NCBI GenBank assembly: GCA_049967855.1 | Contig: JBMFRX010000002.1 | Location: 32,001 to 96,000 of the forward strand | Direction: 5' to 3' | Length of the DNA: 64,000 nucleotides | DNA from: Caldisericaceae bacterium | Lineage (GTDB): Bacteria; Caldisericota; Caldisericia; Caldisericales; Caldisericaceae | Shown here: piece by piece, positions 33,801 through 61,334 of the stretch | Position numbering within the stretch: the stretch's first letter is position 1 | How the letters are laid out: each line of letters begins with the position of its first letter | Translations under genes and position numbers: made by a program | Notes under the pieces: model-generated | Database searches by the model: none | What the model was told of the DNA's origin: nothing | What the model saw: the letters and a program-made list of their open reading frames with translations, nothing else

Positions 33801-34565
33801 GTGTTGGTGATATGGATGAATAGTGTTTTTATGGAATCAGCGCTGGATAGAGAAGAGTACTTATTTTTCTCAATTTTGGTGCCAGCGCATAATGAAGAGA
33901 AATATATTTCTAAAACTCTTGGTTATTTGAAGGGCCTCGATTACCCAAAAGATAAATATGAAGTAATTATTGTTGAGAATGGCTCTACAGACAATACTCT
34001 TTCTATCCTCGAGCAGCACAAAAACATAGAAAACGTTTTCATTTTTTCTTCGAAGGAAAGAGGTGTTTCAAGAGCAAAGAATCTTGGTATTAGCAAAATC
34101 TCTGTTAAATCTGATTGGACGATTTTTCTCGATGCTGATACGATATTGAAGAAGGGCTTCTTGAAAAACCTCAACAGTTATTTAAGAGAAAAAAGCAATA
34201 TGAATATCGTTATTGGTACAACTTCCGTACTACCTGATTCCAATTCGAAATATGCACATTTATGGTTCAGTTTTTACAATTTTGCACACTGGCTTATCAA
34301 GGTCTCATTTTCAATTCAAATTGCAAGAACAAGTGTTGCTTCCAAGATAAGGTTTGATGAACATCTCTCATATGGAGAAGACTATAAATTTGTAAGAGAT
34401 TCCCAGAAGTTTGGCAAGTTCTTCTTTTTCAGGACCGATGAAGTGCTGACATCTACACGAAGGTTTGAGGAAGAGGGCTGGTTTAAACTATTTTTTAAGT
34501 GGATTGTGAGAGGTATGTTGCCCGAAAAGATAAGAAGAAGAGTAAGTTATGAGGTAATAAGATGA
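33801..34565 (+). CDS. Glycosyltransferase family 2
   Basis: ILVPAHNEE, NGSTDNT, FLDAD (DxD), GED, TSTRRF; start uncertain. Confidence 0.9.
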   Translation: MLVIWMNSVFMESALDREEYLFFSILVPAHNEEKYISKTLGYLKGLDYPKDKYEVIIVENGSTDNTLSILEQHKNIENVFIFSSKERGVSRAKNLGISKISVKSDWTIFLDADTILKKGFLKNLNSYLREKSNMNIVIGTTSVLPDSNSKYAHLWFSFYNFAHWLIKVSFSIQIARTSVASKIRFDEHLSYGEDYKFVRDSQKFGKFFFFRTDEVLTSTRRFEEEGWFKLFFKWIVRGMLPEKIRRRVSYEVIR

Positions 34566-35356: not shown

Positions 35357-36664
35357 TTAGAAGAATCTGTAGACTCTCCAGGTAAAACCCTTTTTGCCCA
35401 TCTGGAGGAGCGGGTTTACCATTTGTTTGTTTGTATCTGCAATTTGTGAAGCACTTGAATAAGTCATACCCAAGGCCAATCCATTATCGAATGTTTTCTC
35501 GTAGAGAAGGGCATCGAGTCCAAGTCTTTTTTTCAGAGTGCCAAGTATAAAAATCCTGGCTGAGTCAAAAGATTTTTTCTTTAGAGAATCGTTGATTGCA
35601 AGAAATATTTTGATATCGCGTTTCAGGTCACTGACGGAAATAGCGCTGTCAGATGGCATGAATTCACTGAATAAGGTACTGTCAATTCTCTTAATAACTG
35701 TATTGATATTTGGTATTGTTACTGAAACTCCGATTATATCTTTATTATGGGCAGGACAGTCTTTGCATTCTTCTTCTGCAATGAATATAATATCTTCAAG
35801 CGCAATCGTTTTTAACGATGCTGCAATGTAATCAAACTCTTCGTTTGTGAACTTTTCAAACTGAGGATGTTCTACTGTATCCCATGCTATATTGTAAACG
35901 TACTTTATTCTTTCAATCTCCTTCTTGAAATCTTTAAGTGAAGCAGTTCTTACAGTAATTCCATTTTTTTTCAAACGTTCTTCCAGAGAATCTCCGTTTA
36001 CTGTGAATTCCTTTATTTTGTTTACGTATCCTATAACGCTTTTGTAATCAATTAAAAACGAATACCAATCATTTTCGCGCTCGCCAAACGAATCAAATAT
36101 ATCTTTATAATAAGGTGGATTGTAAGGCTCCATAGGCATTGGCGTTAAATCAAAACCATCTATTAATAATCCTGCTTCTCCTGAGGCGTTGAATCTCATA
36201 GGTCCGATAATTTTCAGCGCATTGTTTTCGCTCAGGTCCTTGATTGCGGCTTTTATAAGGGATTCTCCAACTTCTTTTGTCTCTGCCTCAAAAAGACTTA
36301 TGATTCCAACCTTGCCTTCGAATTTCTTCTCTTTGTAGTTTTTGTCTATTACTGAGGCTATTCTCCCTAAGGGCTTGCCGTCGTTTGCGTAAGCAATATA
36401 GTATTGTAGGAATTCAAGATGCTTGAAAAAAGGGTTGGACCCTGGGAGATACTTTTTTATATGACCGTAATCTGGATTGAGATCCATCATCTCTTGAAGA
36501 ACAATAGGAAAGACTTTCCTTGATTCAGGTTGCCTGTACCAGGAGATATGCCAGGGCACAGAAACAAACTTCTTTAGTTTGCTGTAAGAAATACTGAAAA
36601 GGGAGTTCCCATTATAAATAACTCCATGAGGATTCTCAATTAACTTATCAATTCTGTAATCCAT
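35357..36664 (-). CDS. Tandem-GNAT protein resembling the bacterial ceramide synthase (bCerS/YghO-like) family
   Basis: NPFFKH, GRIAS, GIISLFE, IIGPMRF..SGEAGLLIDGF, PMEPYNPPYY, YNIAW, GLDALLY, DTNKQM, WRVY. ATG 36664 follows GGAGGT. Confidence 0.7.
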   Translation of the reverse strand: MDYRIDKLIENPHGVIYNGNSLFSISYSKLKKFVSVPWHISWYRQPESRKVFPIVLQEMMDLNPDYGHIKKYLPGSNPFFKHLEFLQYYIAYANDGKPLGRIASVIDKNYKEKKFEGKVGIISLFEAETKEVGESLIKAAIKDLSENNALKIIGPMRFNASGEAGLLIDGFDLTPMPMEPYNPPYYKDIFDSFGERENDWYSFLIDYKSVIGYVNKIKEFTVNGDSLEERLKKNGITVRTASLKDFKKEIERIKYVYNIAWDTVEHPQFEKFTNEEFDYIAASLKTIALEDIIFIAEEECKDCPAHNKDIIGVSVTIPNINTVIKRIDSTLFSEFMPSDSAISVSDLKRDIKIFLAINDSLKKKSFDSARIFILGTLKKRLGLDALLYEKTFDNGLALGMTYSSASQIADTNKQMVNPLLQMGKKGFTWRVYRFF

Positions 36665-36842
36665 GATTACCTCCATAACCAAAACTCGCTTTAGTCTATC
36701 ATAATTTCAAATTTTCTCAAAAGGCTTTGTAAGATTTTGGCAGCATTATTAGATACTGAGAATGGCTCCAGGTTTTTGATTTTGCTAATGTAGATAATTC
36801 GATAAAATATAATATGAGTATTTGTGAATATAGGAGGGCATA

Positions 36843-52806: not shown

Positions 52807-53828
52807 AAAAGAAAGTTGCAATTATGGGAGCGACGGGGATGGTGGGGCAGAGATTTGTGAGTTTGCTTGACGAACACCCATATTTTGAGGTGACAAGTCT
52901 ATATGCAAGTAAACATAGCGAAAATAAGAAATACGGGGATACTGTAAATTGGATGCTTGAGAAGCCAATTCCGCAATATGCGCAATCGATGACCGTGAAA
53001 TCATTTGAAGGAAATGAAGGGGTTGAAGAAAGTATCTTGTTCTCAGCACTTCCTGCTGACGTTGCAAACATCTTAGAAGTGGAGCTTGCAAAGGCTGGAA
53101 AATTCGTTTTCTCTAATACATCTTCCCATAGATATGACCGTTATGTCCCAATCCTGATACCAGAGGTAAACCCTGATCACTTTGAAGCAGTGAGATTTCA
53201 AGAAACAAGAGGATTTATTGTAACTAATGCGAACTGTTCTACAACTGGACTCGTAATACCTTTAAAAGCACTTTTAGAAAGATTTGCCATTCGTTCTGTT
53301 TTTGTCGTGACTATGCAAGCAATCTCTGGAGGAGGATTAAATGGTGTTTCTGCTCTTCAGATTACTGGGAATATAATTCCTTTTATTGAAAAAGAGGAAG
53401 AGAAAATTGAGCTTGAAACTCGTAAAATTCTTGGTAGCTTCAATGGAGACTTCATCTTGAATGACATTTTTATCTTTGCAAGAGCAAATAGAGTACCTGT
53501 TCGTGAAGGTCATACAGAAGTGGCATTTGTTGACTTAGATGCAAGTGTTGAAGAGGTGAAAGAGGCGTTTTCGGACTTTAGAGGGATTCCTCAGGAGCTA
53601 TTATTGCCAACTGCACCAAAAGAAGTAATCAGAGTATTTGATAATGTTAATCATCCTCAGCCGATACTTGATGTAAATGCAAATTCTGGTATGAGCGTGA
53701 GTGTTGGACGAATAAGAAAAAGTGGAAACTTCATAACCTTTACTCTTCTCTCTCACAATACAGTGAGAGGAGCTGCAGGCGGTAGTGTTCTCAATGCAGA
53801 ATTTGCCTACAGGAGAGGCTGGATATGA
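52803..53828 (+). CDS. asd: Aspartate-semialdehyde dehydrogenase (archaeal/fungal type)
   Basis: GATGMVGQRF, IPEVNPDH, TNANCST, QAISGGG, HNTVRGAAGG. Confidence 0.95.
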   Translation: MKKKVAIMGATGMVGQRFVSLLDEHPYFEVTSLYASKHSENKKYGDTVNWMLEKPIPQYAQSMTVKSFEGNEGVEESILFSALPADVANILEVELAKAGKFVFSNTSSHRYDRYVPILIPEVNPDHFEAVRFQETRGFIVTNANCSTTGLVIPLKALLERFAIRSVFVVTMQAISGGGLNGVSALQITGNIIPFIEKEEEKIELETRKILGSFNGDFILNDIFIFARANRVPVREGHTEVAFVDLDASVEEVKEAFSDFRGIPQELLLPTAPKEVIRVFDNVNHPQPILDVNANSGMSVSVGRIRKSGNFITFTLLSHNTVRGAAGGSVLNAEFAYRRGWI

Positions 53829-54835
53829 GTTTTAGAAGAGGCACCTTAAACGACATCTTTAAAGATTACATTGTGTTTCGGGAGCTTAGACCGATAAAAG
53901 AAGGGTTATCTAGTTTTGAAGAGTTAGGTAATAAATCCCATAAGGGATTCCCAAGGAAAAAGGATAAGGAATATGCTGCCATTCTTTGCCAGATTTTCAG
54001 AAGTGCAATGAGTTTTTCCAAAATTGTTTACATTGGGGACACGTTTTTGTCTGATCTTGCTGTGATTGAAAATATCAAAGAACTCGGATACGATGTTTTT
54101 GGTGTTATTACTGATGAAACTGGCAAAAACTCCGAAAGCAAATATCCTTACATAGTGTTTAATAACTCCTGGGATCAATTGAGTAATTATGTTGTCGACA
54201 AGATAAACAATGAGACAGTGCTTGTTGTTGATATTGATAAAACTGCAATTGGAGCTCGTGGGAGAAATGACTCGTCAGTTGACAAAGCAAGGACCGATGC
54301 GATTTTAGATTTAGCAAAAAGAGTATTCAAAAACCCAGAAAAGGACGAGTTTATGAGGCTTTACCATTATATACATGCAAAGGACTTCTTAAATTTCACA
54401 CAGGATAATCAGGATATTGTTTCGATACTCTCCCTTATTATATATTCTAACGCAATTTCTTTTGATGATTTTTCAAGTTTTGCGAAGACACGAAAGTTTG
54501 AAGAATTCATTCAAGATGTTAAAGTACAAGGCGAGCTCGTGCCTCTGGTAGACGAGGTGAGGACAAATATTAGGGAAGACAATGCAACACTTTTCCCTAC
54601 CTTTAGAAGAATTGAGCTTGAAAAGACTTTAAATAGAATGGATTTTTTGCCAGATGATACGCCAATTGAAAAACTTCTTGAAGAAGAAATATTAATCACG
54701 GGAGAAGTTTATAGAATTGGGATACGTGCAAACGAGAAAGGTGCACTTGTTTTTGGCGTTTCAGACAAACCAGAGAAAGCCTCATTTAATGATAGCAAAG
54801 CACTATTCAGAAAGACAGCCAAAATATATCCATAG
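53825..54835 (+). CDS. Hypothetical protein with circularly permuted HAD-superfamily motifs
   Basis: PRKK (motif III), YIGDTFLSD (IV), LVVDIDKT (I), FGVSDKP (II); ATGA overlap with asd. Confidence 0.6.
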   Translation: MSFRRGTLNDIFKDYIVFRELRPIKEGLSSFEELGNKSHKGFPRKKDKEYAAILCQIFRSAMSFSKIVYIGDTFLSDLAVIENIKELGYDVFGVITDETGKNSESKYPYIVFNNSWDQLSNYVVDKINNETVLVVDIDKTAIGARGRNDSSVDKARTDAILDLAKRVFKNPEKDEFMRLYHYIHAKDFLNFTQDNQDIVSILSLIIYSNAISFDDFSSFAKTRKFEEFIQDVKVQGELVPLVDEVRTNIREDNATLFPTFRRIELEKTLNRMDFLPDDTPIEKLLEEEILITGEVYRIGIRANEKGALVFGVSDKPEKASFNDSKALFRKTAKIYP

Positions 54836-59420: not shown

Positions 59421-59558
59421 TGCAGTCTTTTCCACACAAACAATTTTATCACTAAATCCTGTAAATTCAAACAGTTTTCTCTTGCCAACTTTTATAGTTG
59501 CAAAAAACATCTTTATGCGTAAAATATTTACTAAAGTGCAGAAAGGGTAGGTGAAATA

Positions 59559-60758
59559 GTGGATATATTTGGCAAATTTAAGAATTCGGATAGAGAGTCT
59601 CCTATAAACGATGCCCGATTAGCTATAGAAAAGGGTATTTATCCTTATTTTTTACCTCTTGAGGAAACTGAAGGCACCGAAGTGGTTATAAATGGTAGGA
59701 AACTTATTATGCTTGGTTCTAACAACTATCTCGGACTTACTACTCATCCTAAAGTGAAGGAGGCTGCTATTAACGCTGTAAAAGAATATGGTACAAGTTC
59801 TACAGGCTCTCGTTTTATGAATGGCACTTTGAAAATTCATCGTGAGCTTGAAGATAAACTTGCCGAGTTTCTTCATAGAGAAGCCTGTCTTGTGTTCTCC
59901 ACTGGTTATCAGACCAACGTTGGCACAATTTCGTCACTTGTTGGGCGAAACGATTATGCAATTACCGACAAGGAAGACCATGCTTCAATTATTGATGGTG
60001 TTAAAATGTCTTATGGTAAATTGGCTCGATTTAAACATAACGATGTTGATGATCTTGAGCGTGTTATAAAAACACTTCCTGGAGATTCTGGCAAGCTTTT
60101 GATTGTAGATGGAGTTTACTCTATGGCAGGCGACATTGCTCCATTGCCTCAAATGCTTGAAGTTGCTAAGAAAAATGACGTAAGGATTATGGTTGACGAT
60201 GCTCATTCCATTGGGGTGCTTGGTGACCATGGCAGAGGAACTGCAAACTACTATGGGCTAGACAAGGAAGTAGACTTGATAATGGGTACTTTCAGCAAGT
60301 CTTTTGCAAGTCTTGGAGGTTTTATTGCAGGAGATGAGGATGTAATTTTTTACATAAAGCATACTGCAAGGTCTTTCATATTCAGCGCGAGTATGTCGCC
60401 TGCAAGTACAGGAGCAGCGTTGGCATCTTTGCAAGTTATGCAAGACGAGCCAGAGCGAATTGAGCACCTCTGGAAGATAGCGGAGCGAATGAAACAAGGT
60501 CTAAAATCACTTGGATTTGATATAGGCAACAGTAGTACTCCTGTTATACCTGTTTATATACGCGATAGGTGGAAAACGATTTATATGTGGAAAGAGCTTT
60601 TTGATTTGGGAGTTTATGTGAATCCAACTGTGCCGCCTGCTGTTTCACCTAATGAGTCCCTCTTAAGAACAAGCTACATCGCAACCCACACCGAGGAGCA
60701 GATAGACAGAGCTCTTGAGATTTTTGAAAGAGCAGGTAAGAAAATAGGTCTTATTTAG
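59559..60758 (+). CDS. spt: Alpha-oxoamine synthase, most like serine palmitoyltransferase
   Basis: GIYPYF, GSNNYLGL, GSRFMNGT, DHASIIDG, DDAH, DLIMGTFSKS, FIFSAS. These match SPT rather than KBL (SVRFICGT, GTLGKA) or BioF (ASRL, GTLSKA). Confidence 0.75.
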   Translation: MDIFGKFKNSDRESPINDARLAIEKGIYPYFLPLEETEGTEVVINGRKLIMLGSNNYLGLTTHPKVKEAAINAVKEYGTSSTGSRFMNGTLKIHRELEDKLAEFLHREACLVFSTGYQTNVGTISSLVGRNDYAITDKEDHASIIDGVKMSYGKLARFKHNDVDDLERVIKTLPGDSGKLLIVDGVYSMAGDIAPLPQMLEVAKKNDVRIMVDDAHSIGVLGDHGRGTANYYGLDKEVDLIMGTFSKSFASLGGFIAGDEDVIFYIKHTARSFIFSASMSPASTGAALASLQVMQDEPERIEHLWKIAERMKQGLKSLGFDIGNSSTPVIPVYIRDRWKTIYMWKELFDLGVYVNPTVPPAVSPNESLLRTSYIATHTEEQIDRALEIFERAGKKIGLI

Positions 60759-60765
60759 CAATTTT

Positions 60766-60792
60766 TAAGGGCATCCCTGTGGGATGCCCTTA
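60766..60792. terminator. Bidirectional intrinsic terminator
   Basis: TAAGGGCATCCC-TGT-GGGATGCCCTTA perfect 12 bp stem between convergent genes. Confidence 0.85.
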
Positions 60793-60821: not shown

Positions 60822-61334
60822 TTATGGATTTCTTGGAGTTGTGCAATTCCCTGAGCCTGTCCTGTTTCCCTTGACTGCGCTTTTTGCCCATGAAGGTGAC
60901 CCAGTTGCAGTTCTCTCAACCATTGTTTTTACTCTTGAAAGCACTTGGGAAGAAGCACTATCAAATTGTTTCTGAGTAATCTTGCCATTTGAAAGGAGTG
61001 TTTTTAATTCATCGGTTCTCTTTGTAACAATAAACTGTACGAGAGAATCCTCGGTCTTGCCTTTTTCTGATGCAATTGTTGCAAGGCTTTTTCCTGAAGC
61101 TCTTTCTTGTTCAAGGCTACTAACTGTCATTCCAAGAAATGTGGCAATATCTGAGTTTTTACTTCCACTGTTCTTTAAAGATATGCCATTCGATTGAGTT
61201 CCCTTAAATCTTGACATACTTCCTGCTCCCGTGTCTGAAGCATTTGAAGAAGTGCTTGCATTAGCAAATCCAATACCTCCAAGCACGAGTCCTGCTACCA
61301 TTACTCCAACTAACAACCAATTAAATTTTCTCAT
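60822..61334 (-). CDS. Secreted hypothetical protein
   Basis: Sec signal ending ANA-S; IATFLGMT..GKSLATIA and GKITQKQ motifs; GAGGAGG SD. Confidence 0.75.
   Translation of the reverse strand: MRKFNWLLVGVMVAGLVLGGIGFANASTSSNASDTGAGSMSRFKGTQSNGISLKNSGSKNSDIATFLGMTVSSLEQERASGKSLATIASEKGKTEDSLVQFIVTKRTDELKTLLSNGKITQKQFDSASSQVLSRVKTMVERTATGSPSWAKSAVKGNRTGSGNCTTPRNP

Follow-up and report, generated by a model that had tools for sequence, protein, structure and literature searches.

Can a bacterium of the family Caldisericaceae make sphingolipids? This question is raised by a gene for an alpha-oxoamine synthase in a 64,000-nucleotide stretch of DNA (the window), which an earlier note had interpreted as a serine palmitoyltransferase (SPT), the first enzyme of a probable sphingolipid pathway. 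The gene is intact, lies on the + strand at 59559..60758, and encodes a protein of 399 amino acids. It begins with GTG, and a Shine-Dalgarno-like AGGTG (59549..59553, + strand, as read from the sequence) lies 5 nt upstream of this start codon. The open reading frame and the five motifs that had been listed for it are real: GIYPYF starts at residue 26, GSRFMNGT at 83, DHASIIDG at 140, IMGTFSKS at 241, and FIFSAS at 273. The protein also has the PLP lysine (K247), H141, D213, H216, a serine at the gatekeeper position (S84), and R370.

The SPT gene is flanked by a divergent MFS transporter gene and by a convergent gene for a 170-amino-acid protein without a Pfam match, which bears out the claim that no bio or tdh genes are adjacent. 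Directly 3' of the stop codon is a hairpin of 12 pairs (60766..60792, + strand). This is a likely intrinsic terminator, so the SPT gene is likely transcribed alone. (Our scan for hairpins with stems of at least 5 pairs found 1, as compared to 1.0 expected in shuffled sequences, so the count is at chance level. The promoter scan was also at chance level, with 3 found and 3.7 expected.) The 170-amino-acid protein (60822-61334), whose gene converges on the terminator, is hydrophobic at its N-terminus, contains low-complexity sequence rich in Ser and Gly, and matches no family. The remaining genes in the window are housekeeping genes (clpPX-lon, recA, dnaE, glnA, ligA, gatCAB, and thr genes). At the end of the thr operon, 53825-54835 encodes a 336-amino-acid protein without a Pfam or NCBIfam match.

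The host genome (G000; we cite its contigs as C1, C2, and so on) comprises 1.30 Mb in 42 contigs and is 99.99% complete and 0.5% contaminated. Among named sequences, the SPT is most similar to homologues from Caldisericaceae and Caldisericum (72-79% identity), Dictyoglomota (76-78%), and WOR-3 (67-69%). For the SPT together with a putative N-acyltransferase from the window (see below), the closest named homologues are from Caldisericaceae, Caldisericum, and Cryosericum. Judging from these homologues, the host is most likely a member of the Caldisericaceae, and the earlier guess of a Caldisericota-like host is supported. The GC content at third codon positions of the SPT gene (0.33) is near the genome's value (0.37 +/- 0.04), and we found no phage match for the gene, so we rejected a recent transfer or a phage origin. 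The trees did not single out Caldisericaceae, Dictyoglomota, or WOR-3 as a donor.

Is the protein an SPT? Its best match in PDB is the SPT from Sphingobacterium multivorum (3a2b and 8guh), at 442 bits and without gaps over 369 residues. It is less similar to the SPTs from Sphingomonas (310-334 bits), to BioF/KBL from Thermus (273 bits), to a cysteate acyltransferase (CFAT/SulA/CapB; PDB 28eh; 256 bits, a whole-sequence score only, as is the 442 bits for the SPT), to the best KBL (241 bits), or to the best BioF-type protein (225 bits). Among 16 NCBIfam families, the top-scoring one was NF047600 (SerpalmtaseCFB, an equivalog from Bacteroidota), with 551.8 bits. This is below the family's cut-off of 640 bits, which the anchors from Bacteroidales pass (660-700 bits). 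However, scores of just 444-539 bits are obtained by spt genes that lie within spt-bCerS clusters in Gemmatimonadota, Elusimicrobiota, Aureispira, and Rubrobacter, which implies that the window protein lies outside the Bacteroidota branch but still within the SPTs.

Phylogenetic trees also placed the protein among the SPTs. In a quick tree of 100 of the 173 sequences that we collected, the protein was in a clade with SPTs from E. coli, Sphingomonas, and Bacteroidales (SH-aLRT 99). The support for the SPT clade dropped to 80-85 in a quick tree of 37 rows that included a long-branch sequence from Chitinophagaceae. A careful tree of 25 rows, from which we had removed 12 of the 37 (two long branches and ten near-duplicates), supported the SPT clade at 97/98. 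The anchors in these trees were annotated or cut-off-passing genes; ALAS and characterised CFAT sequences were not among the rows. One of the anchors, Spt from E. coli B, is described as assayed (PMC9386255).

We also compared 26 active-site positions of the S. multivorum SPT, of which 25 are named in PMC10196870 and Arg367 was added by alignment. The window protein is identical at 20 of these 26. The PLP and serine-site residues of the S. multivorum enzyme (H138, D210, H213, T241, K244, N52, G80, S81, and GTFSKS) are all identical. In the window's numbering, the identical positions include N55, G83, S84, H141, D213, H216, T244, and K247, as well as Y30 and F86 from the wall of the acyl site. 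The six differences include A79>T82, L84>M87, M271>I274, and F338>I341, which are near the substrate and acyl sites.

The earlier note had argued from its five motifs that the enzyme was an SPT and not 2-amino-3-ketobutyrate CoA ligase (KBL) or BioF. The motifs are present but are not diagnostic. A BioF from Bacillaceae has STGSRLTT and GTFSKSI, and the aligned KBLs share the HA core (with NHA instead of DHA). The gatekeeper position is a serine in the BioF of E. coli as well (PMC11906848). The assignment therefore rests on the scores, the tree, and the genome context.

Homologues of the window protein are named 8-amino-7-oxononanoate synthase in JGI and NCBI. If these automatic names were right, then the enzyme would be a BioF or a second KBL, which would fit with its sharing GSR and GTFSKS with the Bacillaceae BioF. 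However, the protein scores below the cut-offs for BioF (TIGR00858, 380 vs. 426 bits) and for KBL (NF005394, 363 vs. 460 bits), and a grouping of the window's SPT subclade with KBL (p = 1e-12) or with BioF (p = 0.001) was rejected by AU tests. Also, with E. coli BioB and BioD as queries, we found no homologues of bioB or bioD in the host genome at E 0.001. Finally, the host already has a KBL linked to tdh. Its one other alpha-oxoamine synthase (C27:5813-7003) is encoded directly behind tdh, has a valine as the gatekeeper, and scores above the KBL cut-off, whereas the window protein has Ser84, no tdh nearby, and a score below the cut-off. When we searched the genome with the E. coli Spt, the window gene was the best hit (293 vs. 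200 bits); with the E. coli KBL, the best hit was C27:5813-7003 (332 vs. 237 bits). That the window gene encodes BioF or another KBL is, we think, very improbable. As the earlier note had proposed, it is of the SPT type: 59559-60758 encodes a bacterial SPT-clade enzyme, which likely catalyzes the first step of sphingolipid synthesis.

While classifying these proteins, we noticed a third clade of alpha-oxoamine synthases (support 100) in five other families of the phylum (loci L096, L104, L105, L165, L173, L175, and L177). In this clade, HGVR and S/TYSYL replace TGSR and SNNYL, and there is no adjacent tdh. In the families that we call f5 and f6, these genes lie between a hutU-like gene and lgt.

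Across 93 genomes from the phylum, we found SPT orthologues (at least 66% identity) in 15: 12 of the 26 genomes in the host's family and 3 from family f7. The other matches from the phylum that we sampled (not all were placed) fall with KBL or in the third clade. We found no shared neighbours of the SPT gene across the loci that we examined from Caldisericota, Dictyoglomota, and WOR-3; the gene stands alone. In more distantly related members of this group of SPTs, from Gemmatimonadota, Aureispira, and Rubrobacter, there are spt-bCerS-cerR clusters. Metagenomes gave 597 loci, taken from 3 of the 64 parts of the database; many of the contigs are short. Among the best 80 of these loci, which are of the window's SPT subclade, we found bCerS (12), a CerR-like gene (19), or a short-chain reductase (16) within 5 kb, with at least one of the three at 40 loci. 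A tdh-like gene was found at just one. SPT-clade genes also occur in plasmid records of Gram-positive bacteria. In Priestia megaterium, the gene is alone (54% identity; L208, NZ_CP137804.1), and in Rubrobacter radiotolerans, the gene order is spt-bCerS-reductase-LTA synthase family (L210, NZ_CP007515.1).

The earlier note suggested searching the genome for KDSR (KdsR), CerR, and a dedicated ACP. Only for the first did we find a likely candidate, and it is on another contig. In a search with a profile built from 16 short-chain reductases that are encoded next to spt, C4:33508-34314 scored best (233 bits, as compared to 147 bits for the next best). This protein of 268 amino acids groups with three spt-adjacent short-chain dehydrogenases/reductases (SDRs), with a support of 100, and has the GxxxGxG and YxxxK motifs. 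It is a full-length match to the KdsR family, NF049977, which is its best family in NCBIfam. Its score of 303 bits is below the cut-off of 400 bits; two spt-adjacent SDRs have similar scores (292 and 300 bits).

Within the family, orthologues of the KdsR-like gene are found in 7 of the 12 genomes with SPT and in none of the 14 genomes without it (Fisher p = 0.001, which is overstated because related genomes are not independent). For instance, G022, which is from the same genus and 99% complete, has neither gene. The five family genomes that have SPT without the KdsR-like gene are 56, 77, 80, 92, and 98% complete. The KdsR-like gene is missing from all three of the f7 genomes with SPT and from all seven genomes from Dictyoglomota, WOR-3, and related groups. 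Overall, C4:33508-34314 is likely a KdsR-type reductase. This gene and its co-occurrence with SPT are the new point of this analysis.

The host genome does not seem to encode a protein of the CerR clade, as both of the extended SDRs that we tested fall outside of it. C4:3-941 appears GalE-like and groups with RfaD. The other, C15:25696-26706, is HpnA-like and usually lies behind a TetR gene. We retain it as a minor candidate only: it is found in 10 of 12 SPT-bearing and 4 of 14 SPT-lacking genomes of the family, but it is scarce elsewhere (5 of 49 other genomes).

For the third step, there is a candidate in the window. A bCerS/YghO-family tandem-GNAT N-acyltransferase is encoded on the - strand at 35357..36682 (441 amino acids from the first start; in the databases, the protein starts at residue 7). 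It is 28% identical to YghO from E. coli BL21, which is encoded in an spt cluster (265 aligned residues, E = 5e-26). Its closest named homologues are from Caldisericum exile (61% identity) and Candidatus Cryosericum (47%). We found no second bCerS homologue in the genome. A structural model of the protein (pLDDT 93) matches tandem GNATs and N-myristoyltransferases, and so does a model of a canonical spt-adjacent bCerS from Elusimicrobiales, which we used as the control for the family. The window's protein is about 50 amino acids longer than the canonical bCerS proteins and lacks their WGF motif. We propose that this true homologue of bCerS is a candidate ceramide synthase.

The earlier note had described a bCerS-like gene about 23 kb from the SPT gene. 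The homology is real and the distance is 22.9 kb, but the link to the pathway is weaker than was suggested. Across the phylum, a bCerS-like gene is found in 11 of the 15 genomes with SPT and in 43 of the 78 genomes without it, including G022 (the counts for family f4 being weak matches to the canonical-length type). Also, in the GNAT tree, the window's protein is in a clade that is specific to Caldisericia, is separate from all of the spt-adjacent bCerS proteins, and follows the lineage and not SPT. Since this clade is present with or without SPT, the 23-kb proximity is not evidence of a shared pathway. Within the family, in contrast, the bCerS-like gene is enriched in the genomes with SPT (11 of 12, as compared to 5 of the 14 without it; p = 0.005). 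All three SPT-bearing genomes from f7 lack a bCerS homologue. Outside the phylum, we found one in all 15 of the genomes with the same type of SPT that we tested (the genomes covered here all being SPT-bearing).

We made two other observations that bear on these genes. In several genomes of the family, a second, highly divergent bCerS-like subclade (about 440 amino acids, with a long branch) replaces the window's type (L184:6496-7809, L186:5896-7212, L228, and L235). And two closely related GT2 paralogues (245 bits) might be lipid glycosyltransferases: one, in the window (33801-34565), is separated by 0.8 kb from the GNAT gene, and the other (C4:36971-37696) by 2.7 kb from the KdsR-like gene. 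The window's copy adjoins the GNAT in genomes that lack SPT as well.

Two other interpretations of these genes need to be weighed. The SPT-clade enzyme might act on another amino acid, such as alanine or glycine, or on a short acyl chain, and so form 1-deoxy bases or an aminoketone that is not a lipid. The gene lacks pathway neighbours, its protein differs from the S. multivorum SPT at six of the 26 positions (including the four near the substrate and acyl sites), and the S. multivorum enzyme itself is reported to accept Ala and Gly as well (PMC10196870). However, Y30 and F86 of the wall of the acyl site are conserved, as are N55, G83, and S84. Close relatives are in spt-bCerS-cerR or spt-SDR clusters, and the KdsR-like gene co-occurs with SPT. 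We consider another substrate improbable, although less so than a BioF or a second KBL. The alternative that we take more seriously, while still thinking it unlikely, accepts a true SPT that forms a sphingoid base and assigns the GNAT to some other N-acyl lipid that is found across the class. The base would then remain free, be acylated by another enzyme, or be a minor lipid. This would account for the many SPT-lacking genomes with the GNAT, and the separate lineage clade, the greater length, and the missing WGF motif fit with it too. But the genome has no other bCerS homologue, the gene is enriched with SPT in the family, and the models show that the tandem-GNAT fold of the canonical spt-adjacent bCerS is retained.

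We prefer the interpretation that the window encodes a soluble, PLP-dependent SPT that begins a sphingolipid pathway resembling that of Bacteroides, with its genes dispersed. We put the probability of this at roughly 65%. From the family assignments and the patterns of co-occurrence, which we observed, we infer the activities of the enzymes and the lipid as follows. The window's SPT would condense L-serine with a long acyl chain, delivered as acyl-ACP, to give 3-ketosphinganine. The KdsR-like SDR (C4:33508-34314) would use NADPH to reduce this to sphinganine. In the least secure step, the GNAT would N-acylate sphinganine to dihydroceramide. The whole route would run in the cytoplasm, with the lipid remaining in the cell's single membrane. 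The SPT activity is highly probable, and the formation of a reduced long-chain base is nearly as probable; for the formation of ceramide by the GNAT, the balance tips only slightly in favor. The three genes are not linked to each other. As a caution, a Spt from Nostoc that was predicted from sequence is reported to have made no KDS; that protein did not cluster with the SPTs (PMC8895605).

What would supply the acyl chains? We found no AMP-binding ligase (PF00501, which includes acyl-CoA and acyl-ACP ligases) in the host genome, while 12 of the 14 controls were found. By motif and homology, there is a single ACP, which is encoded inside the fab/FASII operon, and no dedicated ACP. This suggests that the SPT receives its acyl chains as acyl-ACP, on the ACP of FASII.

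The host likely lacks an outer membrane. We did not find Omp85/BamA, LpxC, or LptF/G in its genome, and the controls for these searches worked. (A weak match to LptG, C1:134839, lies in a cell-division cluster between murD and murG, and we interpret it as FtsW; PF03739 matched nothing in the genome.) Caldiserica has been listed among the monoderm groups (10.1101/2021.05.31.446380; PMC12204202). C. exile is described as having an outer-membrane-like envelope by electron microscopy, yet it has no BamA (PMC4104836). The CerR of Caulobacter is reported to be periplasmic (PMC11087976), so a KdsR-type enzyme fits with a host that is likely to lack an outer membrane.

The host's phospholipid genes are also unusual. 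PlsX, PlsC, and six PlsY-family genes are present. (Six such genes in a 1.3-Mb genome are found at C2:378, C2:9700, C2:108709, C5:75132, C13:28775, and C13:38862; one of them is behind genes for a GT2 and a Crt-like flavoenzyme.) But we did not find CdsA or CDP-alcohol phosphotransferases in the host genome, even by six-frame search with profiles of homologues from the phylum. There is no gene between uppS and dxr, which directly adjoin each other (C3:47379-49217) in the pyrH-frr-uppS-dxr-rseP operon, so the usual slot for cdsA is empty. CdsA is missing from 48 of the 49 genomes in two families: 23 of 23 in f3 and 25 of 26 in the host's family, where the exception is one short fragment. All 44 of the other genomes from the phylum have it. 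CDP-alcohol phosphotransferases are found in 21 of the 93 genomes, with only 4 in the host's family and none in f3-f6; of these four whole families without them, three keep CdsA. We found no relevant titles about the loss of CdsA in Caldisericota in the open-access literature. The host is likely unable to make phospholipids that derive from CDP-diacylglycerol.

Which lipids might replace them? The loss of CdsA extends to genomes that lack SPT, so sphingolipids cannot be the sole substitute. Glycosyl-diacylglycerols may be an alternative, as the host encodes a PAP2 protein and five GT2-like proteins. It also encodes Lgt and two PLD-family proteins. Lgt normally uses phosphatidylglycerol. The presence of these proteins makes an alternative or scavenging route to phospholipids possible and counts against a phospholipid-free membrane. 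(C8:58896-59909, C19:13308-14255, C28:5537-6343, and C4:17470-18423 encode the two PLD-family proteins, which have hydrophobic N-termini, as well as Lgt and a diacylglycerol-kinase-family protein. The latter is related, at 60 bits, to a protein encoded beside the spt of Parabacteroides.)

More speculatively, the Caldisericaceae and a sister family might have lost the CDP-diacylglycerol route, with the SPT-bearing members using acyl-ACP to make (glycosyl)ceramides in the cytoplasm. These would form much of their single membrane, and perhaps also the unexplained layer that resembles an outer membrane in the BamA-less C. exile. In the relatives that lack SPT, the same bCerS-like enzyme would make another N-acyl lipid for this role. 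We doubt that all of this is correct.

The earlier note overrated the surprise of sphingolipid genes outside of Bacteroidota and Proteobacteria: in 2024, a study predicted proteins of the Spt-like kind across 38 phyla, in many cases with no bCerS and CerR nearby (PMC11334938). The main text of that paper does not name Caldisericota, although its supplement may list it. A search of titles in the open-access literature found nothing relevant on sphingolipids in Caldisericota or Dictyoglomota. On its own, the SPT is ordinary; what gives it interest is the genomic background of an anaerobe in which we detected neither the machinery of an outer membrane nor CdsA or CDP-alcohol phosphotransferases. 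The pathway is likely complete, if dispersed, in this lineage, and the host's membrane may in fact be built with sphingolipids. If the lipids are found, they would show a role for ceramides in a bacterium with one membrane, and the building of a bilayer by a free-living cell without phosphatidylglycerol from the usual route. The order of the steps, with reduction before acylation, would operate without a periplasm. Both SPT and the KdsR-like gene are present in named records of Caldisericum, among them the isolate Caldisericum sp. AR60. Also, the type strain of Caldisericum is cultured and its envelope is unexplained (PMC4104836), which makes the pathway testable.

How does this putative pathway compare to known systems? 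In Caulobacter and E. coli B, the cluster is described as Spt-AcpR-AasR-bCerS-CerR (PMC9386255; PMC11087976), and rhodobacteria are reported to have the dedicated AcpR and AasR (PMC9386255). The host shares with this system the SPT homologue (41% identity to the E. coli Spt type) and the 28%-identical homologue of YghO. It differs in lacking the clustering, a dedicated ACP, an acyl-ACP synthetase, a CerR-clade protein, and LptF/G. The studied Gram-negative producers are reported to traffic sphingolipids to the outer membrane (PMC11087976). The broad "Spt-like" clade B from Black Sea metagenomes includes 218 MAGs of Chloroflexota (PMC11334938), and Chloroflexota is the group that adjoins the window's subclade in our 100-row tree.

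The closest parallels are from Bacteroidota. BT_0972 from B. thetaiotaomicron, a member of NF049977, is reported to have KdsR activity and not to be clustered with spt (PMC9278070). The SDR on C4 is likewise unlinked to spt and is a full-length match with this as its best family; it differs in that its 303 bits fall short of the cut-off (400), and it is a candidate by sequence. The window's SPT is 46-54% identical to SPTs from Bacteroidales, as compared to 67-79% for the copies from Caldisericaceae, Dictyoglomota, and WOR-3, and the host lacks BamA, LpxC, and acyl-CoA ligases. Nevertheless, the SPTs from S. multivorum (3a2b, 8guh) and from Bacteroides and Parabacteroides (NF047600) are in the same clade as the window's protein, and there too the gene lies apart from the other genes of the pathway.
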